Assembly (NCBI GenBank): GCA_903901225.1
Contig: CAIUQE010000001.1
Location: 2,563-66,562 of the forward strand
Reading direction: 5' to 3'
Source: Candidatus Omnitrophota bacterium
GTDB lineage: Bacteria > Omnitrophota > Gorgyraeia > Zapsychrales > Fredricksoniimonadaceae
DNA: 64,000 bases
The position numbers and the translations under genes were made by a program. The notes under the pieces were generated by a model, which saw only the letters and a program-made list of their open reading frames with translations, was not told the origin of the DNA and made no database searches. This document shows positions 27,382 to 62,658 of the stretch, piece by piece. Each line of letters begins with the position of its first letter. Position 1 is the first letter of the stretch.

Positions 27382-29442
27382 TCAGGTCTCCTCTACTTTG
27401 TAAAAGAAATCACGGATATCCATGAATTCACTCATTTTCCGCAAGGTAACATTCTTGTTCTTGTGCGCGTATTGCTGCAACAATAATTCCAACGCCTGTT
27501 TCTGCTTCTCGGGAAGGTAAAAACGGAACTTGATGCCTTGGGGGCGATGGAACCGCTCAAGGTCCGTCTTATACTTGTCATTCTGCCATCCGAGGATATC
27601 ATAATGGAACGTAAGGACCTTTTCCCTGGAGACCTCTGCCCAATCAGAGGTCAGGTCAAGGATCGCGGCAAAATGGAACTTAAAAAGATCCTCGATAACG
27701 GCCCGCTTGGACTGGCAAAGGGGCGAATAATTAATTGCCGTCGCGAATAAGAACTCATTAAAACTGGCCATGGCTTCGATCAGGGTCTTAAATATATACT
27801 TCCCGTTCATCTTGCCGTGCTTGCCATCTTCCAGGTCTTTGAATTTCTCTGGCCGGCTGTAATGGGCCTTAAGATCATCCACCGAATCAAACCACTCAGC
27901 CCTGGCTTCCTGCTTGAATTCACTGAAGATCTCCTGGATCCTCTGATAGCTGGCATTTGTCTGGGCCTCATCGATCAATCTCAGGATGTAATCCAGAGGG
28001 CTGATGCCAATCGACCTTAAATATTTCAACACACCGTAATAGAACCTGTAATTCCACAGGAACTGGATGAGCCAATGGACCGGTCGAAAATACAGGATCT
28101 CATCCTCGGTCATGTCGGATGTCGCCCGAATACCTTCTTCAGCCTCGAAAGACATGCGGCCTTCATACGTGCCGAATGAATTATCAACAAGCCTGAATTT
28201 CGTCGTGCAATTGAACTTCCCATTTTCCTTCAGGAGCGACATCTCCGTCCCTTCCAGCAAAAGGGCGTTATAGCAGATGATGTAAGAAACATCCCAGTCG
28301 AAAAGGCTGCGCAGCGTCCTGATATGACTTTCTTTTGTTTCGCCAGGAAGCCCAAGGATGATCTCCGTGCCGGACATGCCGCCCATGGCATTGACCCTGT
28401 CCATGATGTCCTTGAATACGGAGATCTTGATATTGGCCCGGTTCACGTTCATGAGCACCTGCTCATCCAGCGACTGCAATGACACAATGATGTTCGAGCT
28501 TTTCAGGATCCGGGCGATCTCAAAAAGCTTCGGTTGATTCTTGGCCCAGTTCGTATTGAACTTCTTCAAGTTCTGCGTTTCATCGGACAACTTCGCGATA
28601 TATTCCGCGATCTCCATGTCACGTTCAACAACGCCGAAATTGGCATCCGCCAGGTTCAGGATGTTCGTGTTCTTGACTTTTGTGGCGATATAGCGCAATT
28701 CCTCCTTCACGCGGTCCATGCTGAAAAGATCCAGCCGGTTGTGCGAAGAAAATCCCTGCGCGCAAAATGTGCATGTGTACGGGCAGCCTCTGTTGGTCTC
28801 GACGATAGGGATAAGCTTGGTCTCGAAAAACTCATCCAGCAAGCCGGTCAGATAGGGTGAAGGGATGCTGTCAAGATCCTTGATCCTGGGAATATTATTA
28901 CCCACAACAGCGGCCCTGTTCCTCACATCATAAAAAATGACCCCGTCAATGGGCGCTGATCGCAACTGATCGATCTGCAGGCCTCTTGCCTCCACAGCCT
29001 TCAATAATTCAATAAAGGGTTTTTCCCCCTGATAGGGCACATAAAAATCCACATGCGGATGAGTTTCAAAGAACCGCGCATACCCGCGCGGAGAGTAATC
29101 AATGTTCGGCCCGCCAAAGACCACGATCGCCTGGGGATTGATCTCTTTAACGCGGGCCGATATCTTCTTATTGATATCCACGTTCCAGGTATAATTACTG
29201 AACCCCACAATATCAGCAGGATCCTTCTTGTACGCTGAAATGAACTGATCCGGATATTTGAACAACCTGACATCAACTTCCTGCGGCGCATATTTCCTGG
29301 CATAGCCGGCGATATAGGAAATATTCAGCGGGAACATATAGGTCCCCACGCCCAGATAGTTATGCACCAGATCACACAAATTTATCTTTAACGTTTTACG
29401 CACAGGCTTCACAGCTCCTTCGATCCCTACATCCCCAGGCAT
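27382..29442 (-). CDS. Cobalamin(B12)-binding radical SAM enzyme with long C-terminal extension
   Basis: N-terminal B12-binding-like domain, CxxxCxxC motif GCPYTCTFC, 686 aa. The C-terminal about 250 aa have no recognised motif. Confidence 0.75.
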   Translation of the reverse strand: MPGDVGIEGAVKPVRKTLKINLCDLVHNYLGVGTYMFPLNISYIAGYARKYAPQEVDVRLFKYPDQFISAYKKDPADIVGFSNYTWNVDINKKISARVKEINPQAIVVFGGPNIDYSPRGYARFFETHPHVDFYVPYQGEKPFIELLKAVEARGLQIDQLRSAPIDGVIFYDVRNRAAVVGNNIPRIKDLDSIPSPYLTGLLDEFFETKLIPIVETNRGCPYTCTFCAQGFSSHNRLDLFSMDRVKEELRYIATKVKNTNILNLADANFGVVERDMEIAEYIAKLSDETQNLKKFNTNWAKNQPKLFEIARILKSSNIIVSLQSLDEQVLMNVNRANIKISVFKDIMDRVNAMGGMSGTEIILGLPGETKESHIRTLRSLFDWDVSYIICYNALLLEGTEMSLLKENGKFNCTTKFRLVDNSFGTYEGRMSFEAEEGIRATSDMTEDEILYFRPVHWLIQFLWNYRFYYGVLKYLRSIGISPLDYILRLIDEAQTNASYQRIQEIFSEFKQEARAEWFDSVDDLKAHYSRPEKFKDLEDGKHGKMNGKYIFKTLIEAMASFNEFLFATAINYSPLCQSKRAVIEDLFKFHFAAILDLTSDWAEVSREKVLTFHYDILGWQNDKYKTDLERFHRPQGIKFRFYLPEKQKQALELLLQQYAHKNKNVTLRKMSEFMDIRDFFYKVEET

Positions 29443-47825: not shown

Positions 47826-50171
47826 TCAACTCCCGGCCGGGGCCCTGGAATGATCCTCTTTGAGAAAGGGGATGACATTCTCCTGAGGCATGGGACGGCT
47901 GAAGAAATAACCCTGGCAGTAATCGCTCCCCTCCTTGATCAACCGGTCCAGCTGCATGCCGCTCTCGACACCCTCGGCGATAACGCGCAGTTTCAGCTGA
48001 TGCGCCAGCATGATGATCGCGGGGATCAGATCCGAACCCTCGTCGGGTTTCATCGCGCTCACGAACCCGCGGTCGATCTTCAGATGCGAGATCGGCAAGC
48101 GCTGCAGGTGGCTCAGGGAGGAAAAACCGGTCCCGAAATCATCGAGCGAGACCTTCACGCCCAACGCGCGGATCGCCTGAAGCGCCTCGATCGCCGCGTC
48201 GGAAGAATTGATGAAGATGCTTTCCGTGACCTCGATCTCCAGCAATTCCGGCGGCAGGCCGCTTTCGGCCAGCACCCTGCGGATCACATCCACAATGCTT
48301 TTGCGCCGCAGCTGGACCACGGAAATGTTGACGGACATGACCAGGTCCCCGAACCCGGCGTCCATAAGGCTCTTGTTGAAACAGCACGCCTGCGCCAGCA
48401 CCCACGCTCCGATGGGGATGATCAGCCCCGTCTCTTCCGCCACGGGAATAAAGTCGTCGGGGAACACCATCCCGCCCTCGGTGCGCGCCCAGCGCAGGAG
48501 CGCTTCAAAACCACGAACACGGCCATCCGCCGCGGCCACAATGGGCTGGTAAAAAAGCCTCAGCTCGTTGCGCTGCAGCGCGTCACGCAGGCCGCGCTCG
48601 ATCTGCATCCTGGTAACGGCCTTGCGGTTCATGACAACATTGAAAAAACAAAAACTGTTGCGCCCGGCTTCCTTGGCCGCGTACATGGCCGCGTCGGCAT
48701 TCTTAAGAAGCTCCTCGAGATCTCCCCCGTCATGCGGATAAACCGCGATGCCGATGCTGACCGTGATGAAAAGGTCGTTGCCCGCCACCAGGCGGGCATT
48801 GTTGAACTTCGCGCGGATACGCTCGGTGATGACCTGCGCGCTCTGGGGCGTGTCCAGGCCATTGAGAAACACAATGAATTCATCGCCTCCCAGGCGGGCC
48901 ACGGTGTCTTCCTCCCGGACGCACTCGTTGAGCTTGTGCGCGCTATCCTTGATGAGTTCATCGCCGACGGAATGGCCCAACGTGTCGTTGACGCTCTTGA
49001 AATGGTCAAGGTCGACAAAGAGGATGGCGCACACGCCCTCCCGGCGCCGGGCTTGCGCCAGGCCGGCATTGGTGCGCTCGAGAAAAAGAGCGCGGCTGGG
49101 GAGCCCGGTCAGCGCGTCGTATTGCGCCATGACGAGAAGCCTGCTTTCCAGAAGCTTCCTGTCCGTAATGTCACGCCCGATACCGACGAGCCCGCTGACG
49201 CGCCCCTCCTTGTCCCTGATCGGCAATTTTGACGTCAGCATCCAGCGCTGCGCCCCGGCGACATCCGCGATAAGCTCCTCCTGGTTGATGATCGCGCGCC
49301 CCTGCTCGAGGACCGTCCTGTCATCGAGCGTGTAGCCCGCGTCGAAATTCCCGAAAACCCTTCTCTCGGCGGGATTCGCGAGGATCTTGCTCCCGTGGAT
49401 ATCTTTCGCGTAAATGGTATCGGGGATGATATCAATGAGGGTCCGCAGCAGGTCCTTTTCCCTGGCCAGGGCCTGGCGGGTCTGCTTCAATTCGGTGATA
49501 TCGTAGATCATGCCCAGGATATAATCTTCCTTGCCGGAATGGATCATCTCGGCAATGAAGATCACGTCCTTGGTCTCGCCCGTCTTCGTGACCAGCCGGG
49601 TCTCAAAACCTTCCGTTTTCTTGTTCTCTTTGAGCATGTCGATCATTTTATCCCTGTCAGAAGGATAGGCCCACAGGAACAACTCCAGGGCTGTCTTGCC
49701 GAGAACCTCGTCGCGTGAATAACCGAACAGCGCCAGGAAAGATTCATTCACTTCCACCATCCGGCCATCCGCCAGGCGCGACAGCAGGATGGAAACGCGG
49801 CTCGCGTGGAACATGGCGCCAAAGCGCCGCTCGGTATCGCGCGACGAGCTCTCCACCCGCCGGCTTTCCAGCGCTGTGCCGATATTCCATCCCAGGCCTT
49901 CGAGGAACGTGACAAGTTCAGAGGTGAACAACCCTTCCCTGCGCGCGTTCACCTGCAGGAGGCCGATGATCCTCTCGCCCGCCCGGACCGGGACAAGGGC
50001 GATCGAACGGTAACCGCGATGGATGCATTGAAGGCGGGGATCAGTGCCAAGGCTGCCGTCGGGCGCACGGCTGCCAGTTCCGCCGCATGACTCGTCCAAA
50101 AACTTCCGCCTGGGGTAAAGAACGGTTTGTCCGGGTCGATCCGCCCGGCAATGACCTGGCCGCAAATGCAC
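47826..50171 (-). CDS. PAS/PAC-GGDEF-EAL signalling protein (c-di-GMP cyclase/phosphodiesterase). Its N-terminal end appears to be the tail of a GAF domain.
   Basis: Tandem PAS/PAC regions, a GGDEF motif (RLGGDEFIVFL) and an EAL domain (QPIV…, EIEVTES, DDFGTGFSS). Its first about 100 aa (…IALVPVRAGERIIGLLQVNARREGLF…) look like the C-terminal half of a GAF domain. Confidence 0.85.
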   Translation of the reverse strand: MHLRPGHCRADRPGQTVLYPRRKFLDESCGGTGSRAPDGSLGTDPRLQCIHRGYRSIALVPVRAGERIIGLLQVNARREGLFTSELVTFLEGLGWNIGTALESRRVESSSRDTERRFGAMFHASRVSILLSRLADGRMVEVNESFLALFGYSRDEVLGKTALELFLWAYPSDRDKMIDMLKENKKTEGFETRLVTKTGETKDVIFIAEMIHSGKEDYILGMIYDITELKQTRQALAREKDLLRTLIDIIPDTIYAKDIHGSKILANPAERRVFGNFDAGYTLDDRTVLEQGRAIINQEELIADVAGAQRWMLTSKLPIRDKEGRVSGLVGIGRDITDRKLLESRLLVMAQYDALTGLPSRALFLERTNAGLAQARRREGVCAILFVDLDHFKSVNDTLGHSVGDELIKDSAHKLNECVREEDTVARLGGDEFIVFLNGLDTPQSAQVITERIRAKFNNARLVAGNDLFITVSIGIAVYPHDGGDLEELLKNADAAMYAAKEAGRNSFCFFNVVMNRKAVTRMQIERGLRDALQRNELRLFYQPIVAAADGRVRGFEALLRWARTEGGMVFPDDFIPVAEETGLIIPIGAWVLAQACCFNKSLMDAGFGDLVMSVNISVVQLRRKSIVDVIRRVLAESGLPPELLEIEVTESIFINSSDAAIEALQAIRALGVKVSLDDFGTGFSSLSHLQRLPISHLKIDRGFVSAMKPDEGSDLIPAIIMLAHQLKLRVIAEGVESGMQLDRLIKEGSDYCQGYFFSRPMPQENVIPFLKEDHSRAPAGS

Positions 50172-50995
50172 GCCAAGACAGGCTTCCCCTTTTCATCCGC
50201 CAGGGGTTTGCCATCATCTCCCCTGACGCAAAGGAACTGCTCCGCCTTGATAAAGTCATCGGGAAAACCGCTGTGGGAAAAATAGGGGAAATCGCCGTCC
50301 AGGACGACCCTCAATCCCACGGCGTCTGCCCCCAGCTCTTGCCTGATCAAATTAACGATGTCATGCGCCGATGACGCCATGTCACGGGAGGAATTCAATG
50401 CCTGCTGGACTTCGAGGAAAAGTTTCTGGCGGGTTTCCCTGTTCCTGCGGTCCGTTTCATCCCAGGTAACGCCGTCGATCCTTGCCGGGCGGCCGTGCCC
50501 GTCGCACACGACGCGTCCCCGGGACACCACATGCCTGAAATTCCCGTCCGCGAGGACAACCCGGTATTCCATCTCGTAAGGGATATTCTCGGCGAGGGCG
50601 CGCGCGATGGCCGCCTTCACCCTGTCCAGATCATCGGGATGGATGACCTGGAAGAATTCCTGCGGCTGGCCGGTATACGTCTGCGGATCAATACCCAGGA
50701 TATGACAGGACTGTGCGTCAAGGTAGCGACTGGCATGCACACAGTCATAGGACCAGATGCCCATCCGGGCGGCATTGACAGCCAGCTCAAGGCGCTGGCG
50801 GCTCTCGCGGGCCAGGGCCTCGGCCCTGGAACGCCCGACCCAGATCAATGAGATGACGACGCCAAGGCCGCCGAGACACACAAAACTGATCCATGATCTA
50901 TGACCGAAAAAGATCACGGTGATGAAATTCACCAGGAATACCGCGAAAAGGATCCACGGCCAGTAACGCCTTTCTCTATTCAAAACGCACCTCAT
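49949..50995 (-). CDS. Membrane-anchored PAS-domain protein ending in a truncated GAF-like segment. Probably the N-terminal part of the downstream GGDEF-EAL gene, separated by a frameshift.
   Basis: Two N-terminal TM helices, a PAS/PAC block (…GIWSYDC…EYRVVLADGNFRHVVSRG…) and the start of a GAF-like region. Overlaps the next ORF by about 220 bp in another frame. The track start at 51097 is likely over-extended; the ATG at 50995 precedes the first TM helix. Confidence 0.5.
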   Translation of the reverse strand: MRCVLNRERRYWPWILFAVFLVNFITVIFFGHRSWISFVCLGGLGVVISLIWVGRSRAEALARESRQRLELAVNAARMGIWSYDCVHASRYLDAQSCHILGIDPQTYTGQPQEFFQVIHPDDLDRVKAAIARALAENIPYEMEYRVVLADGNFRHVVSRGRVVCDGHGRPARIDGVTWDETDRRNRETRQKLFLEVQQALNSSRDMASSAHDIVNLIRQELGADAVGLRVVLDGDFPYFSHSGFPDDFIKAEQFLCVRGDDGKPLADEKGKPVLACICGQVIAGRIDPDKPFFTPGGSFWTSHAAELAAVRPTAALALIPAFNASIAVTVRSPLSRSGRARGSSASCR

Positions 50996-51587
50996 CGATA
51001 TAAAAAACACAGCCCTGCGGATTGACCTCCATGTTTGTGCTCCAGGCAAAGCCGCCGCTGATATGGGAGAGGTCCTTGCCGCGGAGATCAATGGCATATT
51101 CCTTCCACTCCCGTGTCAACATCACATCTTTTAAACTGGCCGAAGCGCTGTCCGGATACATCTGGTCGGGCCCGATACCGCCGACCTTGAACTCCACGAT
51201 ACGCTCCCCGCCTTTTTCGCTCCTGGCCCAAAACACAAGCTTTTGCGCCCCTCTCAGGTCGAACCCGCCTTTGACAGAACCCCAGTTATTGGGAGGATCC
51301 TGCCAGTAAACCCCCGCCCATTTTTGCCTGTCGCTGGAACACTCCGCATCAAACCTGATACGCATGCAGGTCCGGCCATTTTTGACATTGTATCGCCAGG
51401 CATCATCAATGGCGACGCAACGGCCATCGGGCATATAGCCTGACGGGGTAAAATGGTTCTTTGAGTTCTTGTCGTGATAGATATAAAAAGGCTTGAACGA
51501 GGACCCCAGCATGGCCCTTGCGGTCAGCACCCCTGTCACCACCAGCAACACCCCAAGAACAATTATCCGGTAATTGCGTGTTTTCAT
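50976..51587 (-). CDS. Hypothetical exported protein (N-terminal signal/anchor)
   Basis: MKTRNYRIIVLGVLLVVTGVLTARA signal-like N-terminus after trimming the track start (51608) to the ATG at 51587. Remainder Trp/Gly-rich with no recognised motif. Confidence 0.35.
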   Translation of the reverse strand: MKTRNYRIIVLGVLLVVTGVLTARAMLGSSFKPFYIYHDKNSKNHFTPSGYMPDGRCVAIDDAWRYNVKNGRTCMRIRFDAECSSDRQKWAGVYWQDPPNNWGSVKGGFDLRGAQKLVFWARSEKGGERIVEFKVGGIGPDQMYPDSASASLKDVMLTREWKEYAIDLRGKDLSHISGGFAWSTNMEVNPQGCVFYIDEVRFE

Positions 51588-52455: not shown

Positions 52456-53271
52456 TCAAGCCCTCAGCGCGTAATAGTAGCCGCTGTTCTTTTCTATCGT
52501 CACGGGGGTCGCGAACAAGGCGCTGATATTTTTGTCCGTCAGGACAGCGGCCGTCGGGCCGTCCTTGAAGAATTTTCCGTTTTTCATCAAAATGACCCTG
52601 CTTATCTCGGGGATGATATCGGAAAGGTCATGCGTCACCATGATGATGCTGGTCCCGGTCCGCGTGATCTTGCGCAGGACATTATCGACCTTATGCAGCG
52701 CGTGCAGGTCAAGGCCGCTCATCGGCTCATCGAGAACAAGGGCTTTGGGGTCATGGACCAAAGCGCGTCCGATCAGGAAACGCCGGGCCTCGCCCGACGA
52801 CATTTCGTTCATTTTCCTCCCCTGAAGATGGGATATCTCCAGGAATTCCATGATCCGCGCGGCCTTCTTTTTCATCTTTGGACCCGGCCGTTCCCGGAAC
52901 AAACCGACGCTGCTGAAAAACCCCGACAGCACCACGTCCACGCCCGTAATATCCCGGTCAAAGGTGGTTTGCAGGTCATTGGAAACAATGCCCAGCAAAC
53001 GGCGCAGATCGGAGACATCCCACCTGTCCTGGCCCATGATCCTGAAAGACGGCTCTTTCCTGCCGGCCGCCGGATAATATTCCCTGGTGATGACCTTGAT
53101 CAATGACGATTTTCCGGCACCGTTGGGTCCCAGGATGGCGACATTCTCCCCCTCATGGATCCTGAGAGATATGCCGTTCAATATTTTCCTCTGACTGCCT
53201 CTGACAACTGTTATGCCGCTGAATTCCAGCAAGGGACGCGCCTGAAGTTTTGCTCCTTTAATAGCCATCAT
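52456..53271 (-). CDS. Stand-alone ABC-transporter ATP-binding protein
   Basis: Walker A GPNGAGKSS, signature-like MSSGEARR, Walker B LVLDEPMSGLD, H-loop VTHD. Confidence 0.8.
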   Translation of the reverse strand: MMAIKGAKLQARPLLEFSGITVVRGSQRKILNGISLRIHEGENVAILGPNGAGKSSLIKVITREYYPAAGRKEPSFRIMGQDRWDVSDLRRLLGIVSNDLQTTFDRDITGVDVVLSGFFSSVGLFRERPGPKMKKKAARIMEFLEISHLQGRKMNEMSSGEARRFLIGRALVHDPKALVLDEPMSGLDLHALHKVDNVLRKITRTGTSIIMVTHDLSDIIPEISRVILMKNGKFFKDGPTAAVLTDKNISALFATPVTIEKNSGYYYALRA

Positions 53272-53873
53272 TCTCTCCGGTTCTCTATAAATTCAAGCCG
53301 CGCGACCTCGGCCAGGAGCTGTTCCCTGATGCCGGCGGCAGGCCCCTCGACAAGCACCAGCGCGTGCCGGTACGCCCCCAACGCCTCGGAGATCCGCCCC
53401 TGTTCTTCATAGGCATTGGCCATGTTCTCCCAGGTGACCACGCGCCGCGGCTCAAGGGCCAGCGCGCGCTCAAAACACGCCAGCGCCTCGGAAGGCCGCC
53501 CGATCTTGTTAAGGAACCAGCCCTTGTTATGATGGATCGTCGCGTAATCCGCCTCAACCGCCAACCCCTGGTCAAACATCTCCAGGACGCCGTCGAGAGT
53601 GCCCTCCTCCACCATGCACAGCGCGATGTCATTGAAGGCCGCGCCATCCAGCGGGTTGAACGCCAGCGCCCGTTCCAGCAGACCGAGGGCCCCGGCGAAA
53701 TCCCCGTCCACGATCGCCGCCTGGGCGCGAAAATACAGGAGCTCGCCCGGGCATTCCCTGGCCTGCGCGAGCCGCAAACCTTCGGCGATCCGGCGCCGGG
53801 CCTCAGCCTGGTCATTCCAGGTGATCGCCACGTCGATCTGCCGCCTTAACTGGGTAAAATCGGGATGGTTCAT
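53268..53873 (-). CDS. Tetratricopeptide-repeat (TPR) protein
   Basis: TPR-like repeats (…AEGLRLAQARECPGELLYFRAQAAIVDGDFAGALGLLERALAFNP…, …ALACFERALALEP…, …ALGAYRHALVL…). 4-bp overlap with the ABC ATPase gene. Track start 53897; 53873 is an alternative. Confidence 0.6.
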   Translation of the reverse strand: MNHPDFTQLRRQIDVAITWNDQAEARRRIAEGLRLAQARECPGELLYFRAQAAIVDGDFAGALGLLERALAFNPLDGAAFNDIALCMVEEGTLDGVLEMFDQGLAVEADYATIHHNKGWFLNKIGRPSEALACFERALALEPRRVVTWENMANAYEEQGRISEALGAYRHALVLVEGPAAGIREQLLAEVARLEFIENRRE

Positions 53874-54066
53874 GGGGATGGCGCGTCGACGGCGCAAGCG
53901 TTCAGCGCGCGCGTGATCTTGCCCTGGATATTGGCCGTCACGGGGCGCCCCGTCCGCGCTTTCTGCACCTGCTTGAACGTGAGCTGCTCGGTGGAGGCCT
54001 TGACAAGATCGGCATTGCTCAACCCGCGCGCCTTGAGGATGCTGTCAAGCGCTTGTGGATCCAACG

Positions 54067-54663
54067 TCATAAATTACCCCGGCTTTTTCTTTCGCATTCC
54101 TGGCAAACGCTGCTTTCCACCTGTGCTTTGGAATGACTTTCAAAATACTTTTCGATCTGCATCCAATATCCGCTGTCATTACGGATCTTCCGGCACCAGG
54201 CGCAGATCGGCAATACCCCGCTCAACTCATCGATCTCGGCAAGCGTCTGCTCCAGCCGTTGATTGACATCGTGAAGCCGCCGCTTTTCGTCCTCGATCTT
54301 CCCCAACAACACCTTCATGGCCAGAAGGATCAATATCCCCATGCTGACCGTGCAGATCACCGTCAGGAAGATCACCTGCGGCACAACAACGCCCTTGAAA
54401 AGAACCATCAGGAAGATCGAATTGAGCACGCAGATCCCGGACACCATTCCCGTGATCAACACCATGATGCCGCCTTGCAAGCCGGTGATCTGCCGGGCCC
54501 GGTCCTGAAAAACCTCGAAAACAACACCCCACATGAACGCCAGCAGGGACAATCCCGCCAGCCGGACCGGCGTTAAAGGAACGAATCCAAAAACAAGGAT
54601 GCCTTCAAGAAGGATGCCGAAGAAAAGAACAGAGCGCGTCAAGAAGACACCGGGAACTTTCAT
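54067..54663 (-). CDS. Membrane protein with C-terminal Cys4 zinc-ribbon-like domain (paralog 1)
   Basis: About 5 TM helices, a coiled-coil linker, then LPICAWCRKIRNDSGYWMQIEKYFESHSKAQVESSVCQECERK (CxxC…CxxC). Confidence 0.5.
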   Translation of the reverse strand: MKVPGVFLTRSVLFFGILLEGILVFGFVPLTPVRLAGLSLLAFMWGVVFEVFQDRARQITGLQGGIMVLITGMVSGICVLNSIFLMVLFKGVVVPQVIFLTVICTVSMGILILLAMKVLLGKIEDEKRRLHDVNQRLEQTLAEIDELSGVLPICAWCRKIRNDSGYWMQIEKYFESHSKAQVESSVCQECERKSRGNL

Positions 54664-55100
54664 CCGCCTGCCTCCTCTTCCTGGATACTCGACGCGCAGG
54701 CCTCACAAATGCCATGCGTGAAGCGCGCGCTGGAGCGGGTCTCGACGAATTCCTCGACGTGCTTCCAGTAACCCGCGTCATCACGGACCTTCTTGCAAAC
54801 AGGGCAAATGGGCAGCAAGCCGCCAAGTTCCTGTTTTTCTTTCAGCGCTTTCTGCAACACGGCATTGCGATCATGCAGCACCTGGCGGCTCAGTACAAGG
54901 CGTTCAAGGAGGATATAAAACCCCGCCATCGTGACAATGATGGCCAGTACCGGCTCCAGGAATGCCAGCATGTAAACAATGCGGAATTCATCTTTCAGGG
55001 AGAAATGTTCGAACACAAGGCAGATGGCCTCACTGCCCGTGATGCCCAGGAGCATGACAAGAAGGGCGAGCAATATCTCTTTTGTTCTTAAAGGCTTCAT
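54660..55100 (-). CDS. Membrane protein with C-terminal Cys4 zinc-ribbon-like domain (paralog 2)
   Basis: About 3 TM helices, a linker, then LPICPVCKKVRDDAGYWKHVEEFVETRSSARFTHGICEACASS. Same motif architecture as the adjacent gene, with a 4-bp overlap. Confidence 0.5.
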   Translation of the reverse strand: MKPLRTKEILLALLVMLLGITGSEAICLVFEHFSLKDEFRIVYMLAFLEPVLAIIVTMAGFYILLERLVLSRQVLHDRNAVLQKALKEKQELGGLLPICPVCKKVRDDAGYWKHVEEFVETRSSARFTHGICEACASSIQEEEAGG

Positions 55101-55220
55101 TTTATACGGCCATCCCCGTGACCATTATTACCGAAGATCAGCAGGATTTCTCATATTTTTAAGAATTTTGATCTTGATCCCCGTCACAATACTTGACCGC
55201 GGGAACATGAAGGAACAATG

Positions 55221-56648
55221 CTAGGGTTGGCGTAATTTAGAAACGCGGCTGTTCTTGCCGGATCCCTGGATCAAAAGGCTGGCAAGAATGCGGGGGGCTG
55301 TCACACAAAGCAACAAGATCTCTTTTAAGGTCAGGATCCTGACGACGAAAAGGCATTTCCACGCGACCCACACATACCGGCCGGGCGTATAGAAGGAACG
55401 TTTGATCTCTTTACCTATCTTTTTAAGTACCGCGTGGCTGTAAGCATCGGAATACAATTCACCTTTTTCAGTGATGTGGTACCCGGGTGCCTTTTGAGCC
55501 AGCTCCCGCAACGGCGAGAATTTTTCGATGCGCAATTTGTTGGCGGAAATGGTATCCACGCCGATCTCTCTGGCAAATTGCGCGATATAGGTCATCTCCT
55601 GACGCTTCTCGCCGATATTGCCATAGAGAAAATATCCGTTGGTCAGGATGGGATACCGCCTGAGGACGGCGAAAGCATCCCTGATCGCCGCCTGGTTGAA
55701 ACCTTTGTTGAGCTGGGACAGGATCCAGTCATGCGGGGATTCAATGCCGATGAAGAACGACTTGAACCCGGCCTTCACCATCTTATCAAGTATGGCGGGA
55801 TGCTTCGCGATGTCGATCCTGACCTGGGCAAAGAACCGCTTGTTGACCTTGTGTTTGATGAGCAGGTCACATATCTGTTCAGCCCGCCTGGGATCAACAA
55901 AAAGATTGTCGTCGCTGAAAAGGACAATATCGGCTTTTAACCCGCGGATCTCTTCGACCACGGATTCAACGCTGCGCTCGACATATTCGCGTTTTTGTCC
56001 CAGGGGATTCAGGCTGAAGGTGCAGAATTTGCACTTGAACGGGCAGCCCCGCGTCGTCAACACCGTATCGAATAAAATGTCAGCCAGGCGGATGCCGTTG
56101 AGCATCAGACCGTAATCGTAACGCCGGAGCGACCGGTCGGGGGCGGGCAATTCGTTCACATTGAGGAACGGACGGTTGGCGTTGTGCCTGATCTTGTCGC
56201 CATCGCGATAGGAAACGCCCAGGATATTTTCAGGCGCCGTGCCTTGCAGGATCTCCTGTGCCGTCTTCTCGCCTTCTCCCCGGACGACCATATTGACCCG
56301 GCCCGATGCCTGGAATATTTCCTCGACCTTCTCCGTGGCCGTGTAACCTCCCACGACCAAAGGGATATTCCCCGGCATGCGGTTCAATAACGCGTAGATC
56401 GCCTCCAACTGCCGGTCCCAGCCCATGCTGACGAAAACAATATCCACCTCGCGCCCGATGAATTCAAGCAAGGCGCCTTCATCGGCGAGCTCTTTCTCAT
56501 ATCTCAGATCAATGATCGTGATCTTCGGGACCAAGCCTTTGGCGCTGCTGGCGACGTATTCCAGGCCTGTCGGCGGGAACAGCATCATGGTGAGATTGGT
56601 GCTGGCTTCTTTGTAGGGATTCAGGAACAAGGCGTGGCGATATTTCAT
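55221..56648 (-). CDS. Cobalamin(B12)-binding radical SAM enzyme
   Basis: B12-binding N-terminal domain (…DIVFVSMGW…, IPLVVGGYTAT) and CxxxCxxC motif GCPFKCKFC. Confidence 0.75.
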   Translation of the reverse strand: MKYRHALFLNPYKEASTNLTMMLFPPTGLEYVASSAKGLVPKITIIDLRYEKELADEGALLEFIGREVDIVFVSMGWDRQLEAIYALLNRMPGNIPLVVGGYTATEKVEEIFQASGRVNMVVRGEGEKTAQEILQGTAPENILGVSYRDGDKIRHNANRPFLNVNELPAPDRSLRRYDYGLMLNGIRLADILFDTVLTTRGCPFKCKFCTFSLNPLGQKREYVERSVESVVEEIRGLKADIVLFSDDNLFVDPRRAEQICDLLIKHKVNKRFFAQVRIDIAKHPAILDKMVKAGFKSFFIGIESPHDWILSQLNKGFNQAAIRDAFAVLRRYPILTNGYFLYGNIGEKRQEMTYIAQFAREIGVDTISANKLRIEKFSPLRELAQKAPGYHITEKGELYSDAYSHAVLKKIGKEIKRSFYTPGRYVWVAWKCLFVVRILTLKEILLLCVTAPRILASLLIQGSGKNSRVSKLRQP

Positions 56649-56823: not shown

Positions 56824-58149
56824 TTAACGGATCAATCGATCAATATCCTCAAGCCCAAGCGCTTGCCACTCGACTTTATATTTTGGATAACTGGCGATCA
56901 ACGCCTTGGACTTGGCCTTTAACCCGGCCAGGTCGATCCGGTCCTTGTTCATCTTGATCTCGGCGATGACCATGGTCTTCTTCATATCGTTCATCGCCAC
57001 CAGGTCGATCTCGTTCTGCCCATCCTTCTCCCAATACGAACCGATGCGGTTGTACTCGCCGCTCTCGGCATACAGCGTCTGAAAGAACCGCTCAAGGACG
57101 CTGCCGGCATACGTGGAATAGTCGCGCCTGATGATGTCCCGGATGTACTCAAAGTTACCCGTCTCGACCGCGGAGCGGTTGCGGTAAATGAACCGGAACC
57201 AGAACGCCAGGAAGTTGTCCGCGATCCGGTACTTCTGCGCCTTGGAGTTCGGCTTGGCGTTCACCGGCTTGTACCGCTCGATGACAGCGTAATCCCGCTC
57301 CAGGCGGTCAAGATAACCGCCAACGTCCGATTCCAGGATAGACTGGATCTCCGAGCGGCCGGTCTTCCCAACGGAGATCAGCTCAAGTATCGAGAAGTAC
57401 GTCCCGTACTCTTTCCCGAACTCCTCGATCAGGAGGTTCCGGCCTTCGTTCAGGGACGGCGAGTTAGCCTCAACCGCAAAGTCCAGGATCTTCTCGAACG
57501 TGAACGCCCGATCCTCCACCAGCTGATCAATGTACTTCGGGCTGCCGCCGGTAAAGAGGTAGTGGTCAAACAGCACGGTCGTGTTCTTTATCTTGTAGTC
57601 CCGCAGGATGCCAGCCATGGTCCGGATCGAGAACGGCTTGATCATGAACATCCGATCCGCGCGGTTGAACAGCGGCTCCTTGGAGCCCTCAAAGATCTTG
57701 TGCATCAGGGAATACACCGACCCGACGCAAATGACGTTCAGTTTACTTTTGGCCTTGTGGAGATCCCAGAGCTTCTGTATCTCGGAATAAACGGACGGGT
57801 TGATGTTATAAAACTCCTGGAACTCGTCAATGATGACCGTGAGCGGCTCATCCTTGGCGATCTGGAGCAAAAGCTGAAAGACATCCGGGAAGGAACGGAT
57901 ATTCCCGATAACAGGGGCTTCTGGATACAGCCGCTTGATCTGCGCGACGTATTCCTCACAAAGCAATGCCTCGGACTTCTTGGCCACGAAGAGGTACAGG
58001 TGCTTCTTGTCCTTGGCGAACTCCAGGGATAACAATGTCTTCCCCACGCGCCTGCGGCCGGTCAGAACGGCCATGCGAGATCCGGCCCTCACCTGCCCCA
58101 TCAACTTATTCAACTCTGCCAATTCCTGGCGCCTATCGTAAAATCTCAT
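56824..58149 (-). CDS. AAA-type ATPase of the Arch_ATPase + DUF234 family
   Basis: MRFYDRRQELAELNKL…LTGRRRVGKTLL Walker A in the characteristic archaeal-ATPase N-terminus, Walker B-like VIIDEFQEF, and a C-terminal DUF234-like region. Track start 58194; 58149 is the likely ATG. Confidence 0.65.
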   Translation of the reverse strand: MRFYDRRQELAELNKLMGQVRAGSRMAVLTGRRRVGKTLLSLEFAKDKKHLYLFVAKKSEALLCEEYVAQIKRLYPEAPVIGNIRSFPDVFQLLLQIAKDEPLTVIIDEFQEFYNINPSVYSEIQKLWDLHKAKSKLNVICVGSVYSLMHKIFEGSKEPLFNRADRMFMIKPFSIRTMAGILRDYKIKNTTVLFDHYLFTGGSPKYIDQLVEDRAFTFEKILDFAVEANSPSLNEGRNLLIEEFGKEYGTYFSILELISVGKTGRSEIQSILESDVGGYLDRLERDYAVIERYKPVNAKPNSKAQKYRIADNFLAFWFRFIYRNRSAVETGNFEYIRDIIRRDYSTYAGSVLERFFQTLYAESGEYNRIGSYWEKDGQNEIDLVAMNDMKKTMVIAEIKMNKDRIDLAGLKAKSKALIASYPKYKVEWQALGLEDIDRLIR

Positions 58150-59425
58150 AATTGTAACCTCCGTTACTGTAACCAAGGTTACTATATGAAACATTGTTTG
58201 TCAATGCCCTGTGATTCGCCCTGGTAAAAACCATCTGGGCGACATGGATATTGCGCATGTGGAAAGCCGCGGCACAATAAGAGAAGTAATATTCCCACTT
58301 GCGAATAAAAGACGCGTTGAACCCCATGGCCGTCATTTTATCTACATTTTGACGGAAATTCTCGCGCCAGCTTAAAAGCGTCTTTGAATAAAAAGGCGTG
58401 ACATCCTCATAGTCCAGGAGACCCATCGTACCCGTTTCCTGAAAAGTATTCATGATCCGGGCCATTGATGGCAAAACACTGCCAGGGAAAATGTGCTTCT
58501 GCGTCCAGTCCGCACGCTTGCGAAAACTTTCGTAACGATGGTCCGGACACAGGATCCCCTGGATGCCAAGAATGCCATCCTGGCGAACAAGTTTCTGACA
58601 GACGGCGATATAATCTTTCAGGAAATGGTGGCCCACCGCCTCGATCATCTCAATCGATATCAGTTTGTCGAACTGTCCCTCCAAATGTCTGTAGTCAGAA
58701 AGGCGGACCTCCACCCTGCCCTCAAGGCCCTCGCGTACGACCAGCTCTTTAACATAATCGAATTGTTCTTTGGATATCGTGACCGTTGTGACATGGCAGC
58801 CGGAATTCCTGGCGGCATAAACCGCAAAGCCGCCCCAGCCGCTACCGATCTCAATCACTTTATCACCGGAACTGATCCTGAGCTTACGGCACCATTGAGC
58901 ATATTTCTCAATTTGTGCCTGCTGGAGAGTCATTTCCGGTGCGCGATAATATGCGCAAGAATAGGCACGGGTCGGATCCAGGAACAGAGCAAAGAAGTCA
59001 TTGCTCAGGTCATAATGCTCCTGGATATTGCGCTGACTGCCATTGAGGGTGTTACGCCGCGTAGAATGAGCCAGGCGGTCAATGAACCAAAAAAGATTAA
59101 AAACATTAAAACCGGGGCGGTCATACGCCAGCGCAGGACAAGCGTCAATGTTCAGGACCATCCAGGCAATGACCTTAAAGACGTCCGAAGTCTCCCAATC
59201 GCCATCGACAAATGATTCACCGAACCCAACATCCCCAAAGAGAACTGTCTTGCGAAAGAATGCGATATCCTTCACCCGGATATCCGCATTGATGCTATTG
59301 GCGTCATACACGCCGTAACAGATCTCCTGACTGTCGGGCAAGGTCATTTTCATGCTGCCCAGGCGCATTTGTGAGAAGAAGTTACGGATGATATATTCCC
59401 ACCAGGAATGATGCGCCCGCCTCAT
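58133..59425 (-). CDS. cfa: Cyclopropane-fatty-acyl-phospholipid synthase family SAM methyltransferase
   Basis: VIEIGSGWGGFAVYAA SAM motif with the CFA/mycolic-acid MTase family block order. 430 aa. Confidence 0.8.
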   Translation of the reverse strand: MRRAHHSWWEYIIRNFFSQMRLGSMKMTLPDSQEICYGVYDANSINADIRVKDIAFFRKTVLFGDVGFGESFVDGDWETSDVFKVIAWMVLNIDACPALAYDRPGFNVFNLFWFIDRLAHSTRRNTLNGSQRNIQEHYDLSNDFFALFLDPTRAYSCAYYRAPEMTLQQAQIEKYAQWCRKLRISSGDKVIEIGSGWGGFAVYAARNSGCHVTTVTISKEQFDYVKELVVREGLEGRVEVRLSDYRHLEGQFDKLISIEMIEAVGHHFLKDYIAVCQKLVRQDGILGIQGILCPDHRYESFRKRADWTQKHIFPGSVLPSMARIMNTFQETGTMGLLDYEDVTPFYSKTLLSWRENFRQNVDKMTAMGFNASFIRKWEYYFSYCAAAFHMRNIHVAQMVFTRANHRALTNNVSYSNLGYSNGGYNYEILR

Positions 59426-60213
59426 GACTTGAAACCTCCCTTATGTCTTTCACAAAAAAAGCCGCGCTGCAAATGGGCATTCTCGTCCTTCCAAAAGAAC
59501 GGGACCTTCTTCAACCATAAGATCAACGCATGAATATGAATGAAGATGATCACCTGCCAGGTCACCCATGGAAAACAAAAGGTCAGCCAGAGAAGATTTG
59601 ACGTGTTGAGCGCTCGCCGCTTGCCTGTCAAAGAAGCGAAGAAAGGCTTCTTGCCGTCCCTCACGACATCCACGGTCAGGGAAAGAGCCTCATCGGGAAC
59701 AACCAAGATCATATCAAGATCGCTATCGCTGGGCATAAAAGGAGAAATGTAAAAAGACTGCTGCTCTTTGCGGCGGAAAGCCCCATCTGTAAAATGCTCC
59801 TGGGACAGAAAAAAAAGTTTTTGCTCTTGAAAAGTGTTGGTGATCTGAAGAACGGCCGCCAATTCTTTGCCGTTCTTGTCAAAAAAGAAATAGAAGGATG
59901 CCGGATTAAAGACATACCCACCGGTTCGAAGGCCGGTCAAAAGCATGACCCGACCAACCTCCTCTTTAACGCCATTATCTCGCACAAAATTTGCGATGCG
60001 CTCCCTGAGCGACCCGCCCCTGTAGGGAACATGATCATCATCGCGGAACTCATACAGGTGCCCGGGGCCTCGTCCGATCACAGGACAGCTGCGGTGTATA
60101 TGATCGATCTCGTCCAAATCTAGATAGAACAAGAAATACGAATGCGCAAAACCATGCATGATCGGAGTGACCCTTTTATGCATAACCTTGCATTGATAAA
60201 GACAGGAGTTCAT
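59422..60213 (-). CDS. DUF1365-family protein (commonly operonic with cfa and an FAD amine oxidase)
   Basis: N-terminal …LYQCKVMHKRVTP…HGFAHSYFLFYLDLDE… pattern of DUF1365. Sandwiched between the FAD oxidoreductase and cfa in the conserved order. Track start 60270; 60213 is the likely ATG. Confidence 0.6.
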   Translation of the reverse strand: MNSCLYQCKVMHKRVTPIMHGFAHSYFLFYLDLDEIDHIHRSCPVIGRGPGHLYEFRDDDHVPYRGGSLRERIANFVRDNGVKEEVGRVMLLTGLRTGGYVFNPASFYFFFDKNGKELAAVLQITNTFQEQKLFFLSQEHFTDGAFRRKEQQSFYISPFMPSDSDLDMILVVPDEALSLTVDVVRDGKKPFFASLTGKRRALNTSNLLWLTFCFPWVTWQVIIFIHIHALILWLKKVPFFWKDENAHLQRGFFCERHKGGFKS

Positions 60214-60214
60214 G

Positions 60215-61480
60215 TTAAAACCTTTTATAGCCTTCCGGTGTCCTGCCGAGTATCCGGTGAGCGACTTCAACTGCCGAAGTCAATGCATCCTCATGAAAGC
60301 CGTAACGAAAATAACTGCCGCAGAAATAAACCGGCCCATGCTCATTTAATCGTGACAGGCTCTTCTGGGCGCGGTAAGCAGCCGCGTTGAACAACGGATG
60401 ATCATAAACCCCGGACCAATGAACACGGGCAGGATCAACCGCGCCGTTGTCATTCAACGAAACCAGATAATCTTTCTTCTTCGAAACATCCTGCAGGATA
60501 TTCATATCGTATGAGATCACCGCCGGCCTTTTGCCGTCCATCCAGTAGTTCCAGGCCGCCCACGCACGCTTCAAAGGCGGCATGACCGCCCCGTCGCTAT
60601 GCAAAACAGCCTGATTGGGCTGATACCCGAAAGCACCTAAAAGCTCCCGCTCCTGACCGTCAGGCGATGCCAGCATGGCGAGCGCCTGGTCAGCATGGGC
60701 CGCGATCACAACCTGATCAAACCGCTCCCGCGCTCCGGACACATCCTGGACCATAACACCGTCTGCGGCCCGCTCGACACGAACAGCCGGACAGCTCAAG
60801 CGCACGCGCCCGGGAAAAAGAGCCAGTATCTTGTCGCGGTAATTGCGGCTGCCGCCGGCCACCGTCTTCCACTGATGCTGGCCCTGCAGGCCCAGAAACC
60901 GGTGGTTATCAAAGAATCTCACGAGCGTTACAGCCGGAAAACGCATAACCTCTTCCCGCGGACATGACCAGAGGGCCGCGGCCATGGGAACAAGGAATTT
61001 ATCAACAAAATTGTCGTCGTAACCGTTCTCACGTACATACTCGGACAACGAAGCCCCCTCCCAGCGCGGATCAGCCAAAATGGCAGCGAAATCCTTCTGA
61101 AAACGCTCGATCTGCAACAACATCCTCCAGAACCAAGGTTTGAAAATGTTGCGCTTTTGAACGAACAAATTGCTAAAACCCGTGGCCTTGTAAAACAGAT
61201 CGCCCGGAACGTCGGTCACGCTAAAAGACATCGCTGTCGCGCGCGACTTCACATCAAGCTCTTTGAACAGTTGCGTGAGGTTGGGATAAGTTGTTTCGTT
61301 GTAGACGATAAATCCGGTATCCACCGGAACAGACGCACCTTCCTCATCAATGATCACCGTATGAGTGTGCCCGCCGGGATAATCGTTCTTCTCATAAAAC
61401 GTGATATCGAAATCATGACGCAGAAAGTAGGCTGAGCCCATTCCCGCGATACCGGTACCGATCACGGCCAGCTTTTTCAT
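60215..61480 (-). CDS. NAD(P)/FAD-dependent (amine-oxidase-like) oxidoreductase
   Basis: N-terminal dinucleotide-binding GxGxxG (KLAVIGTGIAGMGSAYFL) and about 420 aa flavin amine-oxidase architecture. Confidence 0.75.
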   Translation of the reverse strand: MKKLAVIGTGIAGMGSAYFLRHDFDITFYEKNDYPGGHTHTVIIDEEGASVPVDTGFIVYNETTYPNLTQLFKELDVKSRATAMSFSVTDVPGDLFYKATGFSNLFVQKRNIFKPWFWRMLLQIERFQKDFAAILADPRWEGASLSEYVRENGYDDNFVDKFLVPMAAALWSCPREEVMRFPAVTLVRFFDNHRFLGLQGQHQWKTVAGGSRNYRDKILALFPGRVRLSCPAVRVERAADGVMVQDVSGARERFDQVVIAAHADQALAMLASPDGQERELLGAFGYQPNQAVLHSDGAVMPPLKRAWAAWNYWMDGKRPAVISYDMNILQDVSKKKDYLVSLNDNGAVDPARVHWSGVYDHPLFNAAAYRAQKSLSRLNEHGPVYFCGSYFRYGFHEDALTSAVEVAHRILGRTPEGYKRF

Positions 61481-61515
61481 TTAACGCCTCTCGAATAGAT
61501 AGTGACTGACAAAGC

Positions 61516-61536
61516 ACACGTCCCAAATTCAAAAGA
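61516..61536. repeat. Copy 2 of the conserved intergenic motif, ACACGTCCCAAATTCAAAAGA
   Basis: See copy 1. Located in the 78-bp spacer between the FAD oxidoreductase and the small ORF of the cfa cluster. Confidence 0.3.
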
Positions 61537-61558
61537 TATCTCATGCAATGGTCCCTTC

Positions 61559-61873
61559 TCAAACGTTCTCGGACAATCGCGCGACCTTCTTCAGCATACC
61601 GTTGAAAATATAATTATGAAGCGGCAAAAGACAGTACCAATACGCCATGCCCGTTAATCCGCGCGGACGAAAAGTAGCCAATTGTTGCAATTCACACAGG
61701 TCCGTGTTGATCTCTTTGATGGAGATATCAAGTGTCCCTACGCCGCCCATCAGCCGATCGATCAACCCTCGCAAAACCCACAACCATGTCCCATGATACC
61801 AACCTGTTTCACCGCCAATAGCAGCGATCACTTTCCTGCTTTTGATTGCCTGATCGATGATCTCAGCCTTCAA
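61559..61873 (-). CDS. Small hypothetical protein within the cfa-associated cluster
   Basis: 104-aa ORF, 4-bp coupled to the downstream DUF1295 gene. No motif recognised. Confidence 0.25.
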   Translation of the reverse strand: MKAEIIDQAIKSRKVIAAIGGETGWYHGTWLWVLRGLIDRLMGGVGTLDISIKEINTDLCELQQLATFRPRGLTGMAYWYCLLPLHNYIFNGMLKKVARLSENV

Positions 61874-62658
61874 GAATTTATTTTTAGATTAAACCAGGGG
61901 ATAAAAGCACTGGTCGTTTGCATGTAGCGCCGGTATTCTTCCCCTCGACTGATCAAAGCCTGCCGCTCGGCATGCGGAATGCCCGTGACCTTGACCAGAA
62001 GAACAAGCATGATCAAGGCTGAAGAGCACGCCCACTGCCCGCCGGGTGATGGCCAGGCGAAAACCGCGAGTCCCACCCAGAAAGTAAACTCAAAAAAATA
62101 ATTCGGATGGCGGCTATACCGCCAGAGACCCACATCACAAACGTGCCCCCGGTTGGCAGGAACGGCGATAAAGTCCTGCAACTGCCGGTCAGCCAGTGTT
62201 TCTCCGGCCAAAGCGATCAGGGCCATAGTGATCCCTAGAAATTCCAACCCCATCAACCCAGGAAAAGAGTTGCGCGTAATCACACAAAAAGGATAAGACA
62301 AAACAATAGCCAAAAGCCCCTCGCCCATGAATAAAGCAAAATACTTTCCTCCGCTCTTTTGACCGAAGGCTTCCCTCATGGCTTGATAACGCTTATCCTC
62401 CGGGGCATTCGAGAGAAGCCGGGACAGGATATGGCTGGTTAAGCGCAACGACCACAACAGGACCATAAGAAAGAGGATCGACCGACGATAAATCACCCCG
62501 TTGTTCGACCAGGCCGTGGCTGCCGCAAGATAACAAATACTCATCGCCCAGCCCACATCCACCCAGCCCGCGTTTTTCGTGCGCCGCTCCTTGATTAAAG
62601 CGAGCAGCATGATGACAAAAACAAATGAGATCGAAAGCAAGGTCATGAATGCTTTCAT
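61870..62658 (-). CDS. DUF1295 / steroid-5-alpha-reductase-like membrane protein
   Basis: Polytopic membrane protein with C-terminal …WRYSRHPNYFFEF… motif typical of the ICMT/DUF1295 class. Confidence 0.65.
   Translation of the reverse strand: MKAFMTLLSISFVFVIMLLALIKERRTKNAGWVDVGWAMSICYLAAATAWSNNGVIYRRSILFLMVLLWSLRLTSHILSRLLSNAPEDKRYQAMREAFGQKSGGKYFALFMGEGLLAIVLSYPFCVITRNSFPGLMGLEFLGITMALIALAGETLADRQLQDFIAVPANRGHVCDVGLWRYSRHPNYFFEFTFWVGLAVFAWPSPGGQWACSSALIMLVLLVKVTGIPHAERQALISRGEEYRRYMQTTSAFIPWFNLKINS

Follow-up and report, generated by a model that had tools for sequence, protein, structure and literature searches.

Signalling proteins in which an N-terminal sensor acts on a C-terminal effector through a helix are well known. 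In PAS-HisKA and PAS-GGDEF proteins this part is played by the signalling helix, and a linker locked to one heptad phase marks a coiled coil that transmits from sensor to effector (PMC1592074). A Cys4 domain has also been predicted at the effector end: HalOD2, a putative Zn-finger output domain of halobacterial response regulators, is helical in its N-terminal part, has two conserved CXXC motifs with 20-25 residues between them, and is limited to a few halobacteria (PMC5847659). Here we describe two adjacent genes, open reading frames (ORFs) A and B, found in a 64-kb stretch of Omnitrophota DNA (contig CAIUQE010000001.1; the whole stretch is called the window), whose products end in a Cys4 module of 40-45 residues. 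This tail is a member of a very large bacterial domain family, unnamed in the libraries searched. To judge from sequence, the sensor-helix-effector logic of these proteins is the known one and the effector would be new, being absent from Pfam, NCBIfam, PDB and the literature searched.

Compared with HalOD2 by its published description, the module shares the C-terminal output place and the combination of a helix with two CXXC motifs. In contrast to HalOD2, its spacer is fixed at 29 residues and it is very widespread in bacteria.

Cys4 tails of ORF A and ORF B and their family

The original prediction presented ORF A and ORF B as tandem paralogues, each composed of a membrane anchor, a helix and a Cys4 tail, with a 4-bp overlap of stop and start. 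This description is borne out. Both genes appear in the ORF list, and the four nucleotides shared by the stop of ORF A and the start of ORF B (54660-54663) read tcat on the plus strand and ATGA on the minus strand. BLASTP aligns the proteins with 32% identity across 96 amino acids (aa; E 2e-21), a region that reaches from the last transmembrane (TM) helix through the helical linker and Cys4 tail. The membrane segments are evident from hydropathy, and AlphaFold2 predicts a helix ahead of the first Cys, with a predicted local distance difference test score (pLDDT) of 86-92. The two genes and their parts are as follows.

54660..55100, minus strand: ORF A, 146 aa (ORF list), two TM helices, helical linker and canonical Cys4 module (...ARFTHGIC...)
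54903..55079, minus strand: ORF A membrane anchor, two hydrophobic segments at about residues 8-66 (Kyte-Doolittle)
54696..54815, minus strand: ORF A Cys4 module, LPI-C99-x2-C102-x29-C132-x2-C135 (motif scan; profile independent E-value 5.5e-27, from the identical copy L001)
54067..54663, minus strand: ORF B, 198 aa, four TM helices, helical linker and degenerate Cys4 module (...AQVESSVC...)
54310..54651, minus strand: ORF B membrane anchor, four hydrophobic segments at about residues 5-118 (Kyte-Doolittle)
54094..54213, minus strand: ORF B Cys4 module, LPI-C154-x2-C157-x29-C187-x2-C190 (motif scan; profile independent E-value 4.1e-27)

Hydropathy of ORF A peaks at residues 9-27 and 41-59. As the segments of each anchor are even in number and its N-terminus is basic, we infer that the C-terminal tails are cytoplasmic. 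The anchors themselves are poorly represented elsewhere: no homologues were found for that of ORF A beyond close orthologues and none for that of ORF B beyond its orthologue. MASE6 (PF20966) was not detected by Pfam in either protein at E<=1, though 18 relatives carry it.

Both tails open with LP(I/V) and continue, after the first CxxC pair, into a (K/R)K(I/V)R(D/N)DxG(Y/F)W hairpin that contains Trp13 (ORF A, LPICPVCKKVRDDAGYW; ORF B, LPICAWCRKIRNDSGYW). Beyond the fourth Cys, 11 residues remain in ORF A and 8 in ORF B. A regular expression for the CxxC(K/R)(K/R)(I/V/L)R motif, applied to all six frames, matches these two sites only in the 64-kb window.

A 67-position profile of seven tails was searched against 1.84 billion cluster representatives (50% identity). 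It matched 23,388 of them at E<=1e-3 and 18,757 at E<=1e-10. This is the kind of search that had been proposed as a check of the prediction, and together with a Pfam scan of 144 representatives it defines the family and its domain partners. In nearly all single-module proteins, judged on the best 150 of the 23,388 matches and also on 80 metagenomic loci, 40-65 residues separate the first Cys from the C-terminus. A spacer of 29 residues lies between the CxxC pairs in 270 of the 271 family instances. Trp13 and all four Cys are invariant across homologues, so the Cys4 arrangement on which the prediction depended is a constant of the family. Pro(-2), Lys4, Arg7, Asp9, Gly11 and Glu17 are conserved in at least 90%, and Tyr12, Tyr19, His23, Phe28 and His30 in about 75-98%. 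The resulting consensus is LPIC-x2-CKK(I/V)RDDxGYW-x3-E-x-Y-...-FSHGIC-x2-C, and the mean net charge of the module core is -0.5.

The tail was said to have no assigned function, and it has no name in the resources consulted. Pfam-A (2025 copy), NCBIfam 20, PADLOC and PHROGs hold no model for it. The best Pfam score, with zf-C4pol (PF14260), is 15.6 bits for ORF A and 13.1 bits for ORF B against a gathering threshold of 28.9. The tail profile gave only noise with PDB sequences, e.g. glutamate dehydrogenase at E 0.14. Names in the source databases reflect N-terminal parts only ("two-component regulator propeller domain-containing protein", "response regulator, partial", "PAS domain-containing protein", "hypothetical protein"). 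The module had been thought typical of sulfate- and metal-reducing deltaproteobacteria. Its range proved wider: organism labels on the matches comprise Acidobacteriota, Nitrospinota, Thermodesulfobacteriota, Desulfobacula and one Dongshaea plasmid, and the window itself is from Omnitrophota. Word-indexed protein searches returned 6 matches for the 68-aa tail and 9 for full-length ORF B, and with the profile yielded short, mostly fragmentary proteins; they served to find orthologues and are unsuited to a family census.

Some module genes are very small. At one locus of a 4.6-Mb assembly (L165 3375-5258), a 537-aa multi-PAS ORF is followed at a distance of 12 bp by an 85-aa ORF made only of linker and module, probably the end of a PAS-and-module gene split by a stop or frameshift. 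Many small stand-alone module matches likewise open with the end of a PAS domain. Two further module-only genes were inspected with their surroundings. One (L167 4477-6556) is found with an ArsR-type helix-turn-helix (HTH) gene, a sulfide:quinone-type oxidoreductase and DsrE, the other (L166 2654-6087) with a hybrid-cluster protein and PadR.

The ORF A tail was modelled with AlphaFold2 from 119 family sequences (mean pLDDT 84.4; core 86-93). Elements of the model follow each other as a CxxC knuckle (C17, C20), a strand (22-24), the DDxGY turn, a second strand (30-32), a helix (33-40), a loop and the second CxxC (C50, C53), which opens a helix (51-62). On this model the fold looks treble-clef-like, and the module is probably a zinc-stabilised binding surface. 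The term zinc ribbon, used for the tail in the original prediction, therefore has to be given up in favour of something nearer a treble clef: a classical zinc ribbon needs both CxxC on beta-hairpin knuckles, and the second CxxC of the model opens a helix. Foldseek comparison of the model with the PDB gave no match at E<1 and returned no rubredoxin.

Among described Cys4 domains, treble-clef and zinc-ribbon fingers (RING-type, the C4 finger of DksA/TraR, zf-C4pol) resemble the modelled tail in having two CxxC pairs and a knuckle-hairpin followed by the start of a helix. DksA combines a coiled coil with its C4 finger. Unlike in these fingers, the x29 spacer of the module holds an extra helix, and the KKxRDDxGYW hairpin is peculiar to it. 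The Cys spacing of rubredoxin, C-x2-C-x29-C-x2-C, is identical with that of the module, and the CPxC second pair is shared too. On the contrary, the module is predicted to be partly helical and not a three-stranded sheet with two knuckles, and the rubredoxin aromatic core motifs are absent from it. Rubredoxin (PF00301) was also rejected as a family assignment, with no Pfam match at E<=1 for ORF A or ORF B and no place among the 25 commonest partner families of the 144 representatives. Iron rather than zinc is possible at the module site.

Partner domains and linker

The 144 representatives scanned with Pfam were taken from among the best profile matches. PAS is the most frequent partner (38), followed by MASE6 (18), REC (11), Y_Y_Y (9, with Reg_prop in 8) and GAF (7), then by PocR, HAMP and SBP_bac_3. 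The recurrence of the tail as a terminal module on sensory proteins, as stated in the original prediction, is thus real and covers PAS, MASE6, REC, Reg_prop/Y_Y_Y and GAF architectures. None of the classical output domains (HisKA/HATPase, GGDEF, EAL, HD-GYP, HTH) is among the 25 commonest partner families. Module proteins exist in soluble, REC-linked and membrane-anchored versions. A strongly hydrophobic segment is found not more than 60 residues upstream in about a third of the modules sampled, which indicates that membrane-anchored minimal versions like ORF A and ORF B are common.

The linker between sensor and module is rigidly spaced where the sensor is a PAS domain. Its "DIT" motif precedes Cys1 by exactly 35 residues in 61 of the 64 distinct cases, and by 42 residues (35+7) in two. 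By the heptad criterion the PAS-to-Cys1 linker reads as a phase-locked coiled coil. Module proteins thereby share with PAS-HisKA and PAS-GGDEF proteins (S-helix, PMC1592074) the same N-terminal inputs and a helical linker of fixed phase (35 or 35+7). The difference lies in what follows, a Cys4 module of 40-45 residues which is neither kinase, cyclase nor HTH and has no recognisable enzymatic fold. Operon-like neighbours of other module genes are heterogeneous and include REC (4), histidine kinase (3), Hpt (2) and CheB/CheR genes.

From the C-terminal position, the partner domains, the fixed PAS linker and these neighbours, the module appears to occupy the output (effector) place in one-component sensors and response regulators. 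The REC-module architecture in particular is hard to read except as response regulators with the module as output.

The opposite polarity, which corresponds to the metal-sensing idea of the original prediction, has to be weighed, in which the Cys4 module is an input, a thiolate redox or metal switch with zinc or a rubredoxin-like Fe(Cys)4 site whose oxidation or metal loss changes the state of the protein. Four invariant Cys with a spacing equal to rubredoxin's would suit this role, the family is common in anoxic sediment and wetland samples and in anaerobic lineages, and two of the three small module genes inspected adjoin redox genes, an anecdotal count. Most members (PAS, GAF or REC plus module) would then consist of inputs only and have no effector, and the fixed 35-residue PAS-to-Cys linker is typical of what stands between a sensor and an effector. 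The Pfam Rubredoxin model is unmatched, and in our structural model the second CxxC sits on a helix, not on a rubredoxin knuckle. Many conserved non-Cys surface residues suggest a binding site beyond a mere metal centre. We hold an input role to be unlikely.

If the module is an output, it might act on nucleic acid, as a DNA- or RNA-binding zinc finger of membrane-tethered or soluble one-component regulators of transcription or RNA. It sits at the HTH place of response regulators and carries a conserved Lys-Lys-x-Arg patch after the first knuckle, and Cys4 fingers after helices were proposed as DNA or RNA binders for archaeal HalOD2 (PMC5847659). The module core is, however, slightly acidic (mean net charge as above), about a third of sampled modules lie within 60 residues of a TM segment, Foldseek finds no structural match to known nucleic-acid-binding fingers in the PDB, and no conserved adjacent target operon was seen. 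This makes nucleic-acid binding quite improbable, and the acidic core makes a protein or small ligand the likelier partner of an output module.

Paired modules

Adjacent module genes on the same strand, such as ORF A and ORF B, were found at four of the 80 metagenomic loci. Two modules also occur in one chain. The sample contains 42 such proteins of roughly 300-550 aa (within P0007-P0047, e.g. P0014, P0019 and P0022), with architectures such as REC-module-REC-module and TM-module-MASE6-module.

In 32 of the 42 two-module proteins, exactly one module lacks His30, usually the first copy. Phe28, His23/Ser24 and Pro34 are also relaxed in these His30-less copies, without loss of the four Cys, Trp13, Lys4 or Gly11. 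Single-module proteins retain His30 in 230 of 234 cases, a contrast that is inflated, since this set consists of the top scorers against the canonical profile. The pattern suggests that residues 23-34 form a functional surface dispensable for folding, and that paired module proteins are asymmetric dimers with one functional site.

The tandem pair of the window is divided in the same manner. The F28-(S/T)-H30-G motif before the second CxxC reads FTHG in ORF A and VESS in ORF B, where Phe28 is replaced by Val, His30 by Ser and Pro34 by Gln. The split into a canonical (FTHGIC) and a degenerate (VESSVC) copy is repeated in the orthologues: P0158, an ORF B orthologue of another genome with 63% identity, shows the same degeneracy (AQVMSSLC). 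The ORF B module is otherwise closest to canonical modules, which argues that its degeneration is lineage-specific and was not inherited from the fused subfamily. The fused two-module proteins showed no homology with ORF A or ORF B in the TM parts. Loss of His30 and Phe28 from the ORF B module suggests that A and B may associate as an asymmetric heterodimer.

Gene block and proposed mode of action

ORF A and ORF B belong to a series of minus-strand genes transcribed in the order B12-radical-SAM gene, 120-bp gap, ORF A, ORF B, ORF C, TPR gene and ABC ATPase gene. The genes around the pair are listed below.

55221..56648, minus strand: B12-binding radical-SAM enzyme, 475 aa (Pfam), 5' neighbour of ORF A
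53870..54070, minus strand: ORF C, 66 aa, no recognisable family, ATGA overlap with ORF B and with the TPR gene
53268..53873, minus strand: TPR protein, 201 aa from the ATG at 53873 (Pfam TPR_1/TPR_2, about 1e-16)
52456..53271, minus strand: stand-alone ABC-type ATPase, 271 aa (Pfam ABC_tran, 8.6e-26)

The original prediction had placed the pair upstream of the radical-SAM gene and seen in these three genes a compact unit. The gene is indeed that of a protein with B12-binding and Radical_SAM domains, but the pair lies downstream of it (56648 to 55221, then 55100 to 54067), and the series does not stop at ORF B, which is followed by ORF C, the TPR gene and the ABC ATPase gene through ATGA overlaps. 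All four junctions between ORF A and the ATPase gene (A/B, B/C, C/TPR, TPR/ABC; window 52456-55100) have this 4-bp overlap. With four such overlaps in succession the five genes look translationally coupled, and unusually tightly so.

An orthologous locus (L083) preserves the block. ORF A (151 aa), ORF B (198 aa), ORF C (66 aa), the TPR gene (201 aa) and the ABC ATPase gene (271 aa) follow in the same order, with overlaps at A/B, C/TPR and TPR/ABC and a distance of 3 bp between B and C. The TPR orthologue is present in L083 and also in L084. The gene 5' of ORF A in L083 codes for a receiver-domain protein, and there is no radical-SAM enzyme there. The conserved unit is thus the five-gene block A-B-C-TPR-ABC, and adjacency of the radical-SAM gene is specific to the genome of the window. 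Alignment of the region 5' of ORF A with its orthologous region gave no convincing conserved promoter block. Synteny continues further downstream in L083 with a TPR gene, a family-less protein, a PAS gene and a PAS-GGDEF-EAL gene, and with an inserted MBOAT gene. In the window, at 47826-51097 (minus strand), a PAS ORF and a PAS-GGDEF-EAL ORF share 223 bp according to the mechanical ORF list. On the identical contig L001 this region is called as two genes, of 344 and 708 aa, that overlap by 4 bp, so the 223-bp overlap is an artefact that stems from the start codons chosen, and no frameshift is involved.

Could the pair nevertheless work with the radical-SAM enzyme, sensing its substrate or regulating it? 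The genes share a strand and are only 120 bp apart, and no terminator-like site was found in the gap. The enzyme (PF02310 B12-binding, 5.8e-10; PF04055 Radical_SAM, 2.9e-15) has its CxxxCxxC cluster motif as CPFKCKFC and stays below each specific NCBIfam equivalog cutoff, the best being HpnJ with 102 against 578 bits; being so far below, it qualifies on sequence as a conserved enzyme without assigned substrate. Its homologues (48-81% identity) were located at 80 genome loci (L003-L082) of Omnitrophota, Planctomycetota (Sedimentisphaerales, Pirellulales), Thermodesulfobacteriota, Kiritimatiellae metagenome-assembled genomes (MAGs) and others. A six-frame profile search of up to about 6 kb on each side detected the module at none of the 80. 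The neighbourhood of the closest homologue (81% identity, Omnitrophica MAG, L003) differs from that of the window, and in L083 the pair follows the receiver-domain gene instead. A functional unit of this kind is largely refuted and now hardly credible; the radical-SAM gene is an incidental neighbour of ORF A and ORF B in this genome only. Its window paralogues lie at 10241-11761 and 3336-4955, both clear, and at 27382-29442, marginal (E 6e-4). Rfam, run at gathering thresholds on the entire window, returned no RNA family, hence no cobalamin riboswitch near the radical-SAM genes.

Another partner is offered by the block itself. With 2 + 4 = 6 TM helices, A and B together might be the membrane partner of the ABC-type ATPase in this operon, serving FtsEX/MacB-like mechanotransmission or transport with the Cys4 tails as regulatory or assembly elements. 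No dedicated permease gene is present within the conserved block, whose genes, the ATPase included, are joined by overlapping stops and starts, and by hydropathy A and B are its sole membrane proteins. Against this, the TM parts of A and B have no detectable homology to ABC permeases, their cytoplasmic loops are very short with no coupling-helix-like element identified, and members of the module family generally show no association with ABC ATPases. We give this arrangement only a small chance of being correct. The ATPase falls below all NCBIfam cutoffs. ORF C has no match in Pfam, NCBIfam, PHROGs or PADLOC and a non-significant one in the PDB (YiiF, E 0.69), and a search for ORF C-like proteins beside other module genes found none. 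A, B and C were also compared with the defence proteins of PADLOC-DB 2.0, with no family at E<=0.01.

Two groups of genes were noted 5' of the radical-SAM gene. An ATPase_2/DUF234 protein just upstream of it (56824-58194, minus strand) matches the PADLOC candidate PDC-S27 at E 1.5e-42 and may be a stand-alone defence-type ATPase. The genes at 58133-62658 (minus strand), conserved on the identical contigs L001, code for a cyclopropane-fatty-acid synthase (CMAS), a DUF1365 protein, a flavin amine oxidase and a steroid-reductase-like DUF1295 protein, a group that looks like a lipid-modification cluster.

Taking the locus together with its family, we favour the reading that A and B are anchored in the membrane and together, probably as a heterodimer, build a coiled-coil stalk bearing two zinc-stabilised modules, and that the geometry of the stalk controls binding of a partner. 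As a whole this statement seems to us somewhat more probable than its negation, and its descriptive part is held with greater confidence. The helices before the modules would form a coiled coil with each other, like those of PAS-histidine kinase or PAS-GGDEF proteins. Signals reaching the N-terminal sensor would alter register or angle of both helices and hence the relative position of the two zinc-stabilised modules, and this repositioning would switch the binding of a conserved partner, a protein or small ligand being likelier than nucleic acid. The binding surface might be made up of the invariant Trp, the near-invariant Lys-Lys-x-Arg-Asp-Asp hairpin, Glu17, Tyr19, His23, Phe28 and His30. 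At this locus the sensor part would be a minimal bundle of two or four TM helices only. A, with its canonical module, and B, whose module is devoid of Phe28 and His30, would most likely form an asymmetric heterodimer, and in this lineage the co-translated 66-aa protein, TPR protein and ABC-type ATPase may serve as partners or co-factors.

Several points weigh against this reading, in addition to the inflated His30 contrast. At least one single-module REC protein, P0164, lacks His30. The length of the TM-to-Cys1 linker is variable, unlike that of the PAS linker. A first AlphaFold2 run (60 sequences, long leading helix) had low confidence near the first knuckle. No conserved partner gene was found adjoining module genes, and support for the five-gene block comes from two genomes with ORF B proteins 63% identical, probably of one lineage. 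What the data show directly is the paralogy, the size of the family, the C-terminal place of the module, its partner domains, the constant PAS-to-Cys spacing, the preserved five-gene block and the absence of the radical-SAM neighbour elsewhere; metal binding, dimerisation, partner binding, output role and A/B heterodimer are all things that we infer. As for novelty, no description of the domain was found in full-text literature, and one may stand in a paper or database outside the search.

Extended to the whole family, the stalk-and-module reading becomes a more tentative proposal, which we put forward as possible without expecting it to hold in full. The tail would be a major undescribed class of output domain, to which a phase-locked coiled coil relays signals from PAS, GAF, REC or membrane parts, and whose conserved target would be a universal protein or else a small-molecule messenger; paired and fused versions would be asymmetric dimers of one functional and one degenerate site.

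Censuses of signalling sort proteins by their output domain, and a module without a model would leave sensors and response regulators seemingly output-less. Such proteins would be labelled only "PAS domain protein" or "response regulator", and more than 20,000 families (50% identity clusters) end in the module. Made up of TM anchor, helix and module, ORF A and ORF B come close to the minimum of this design in nature and are convenient for biochemistry, and the pairing of a canonical with a degenerate copy points to Phe28 and His30 as residues of the functional site. With the domain and its ligand defined, thousands of orphan sensors would gain a read-out, among them many from anaerobic, sediment and candidate-phylum bacteria.

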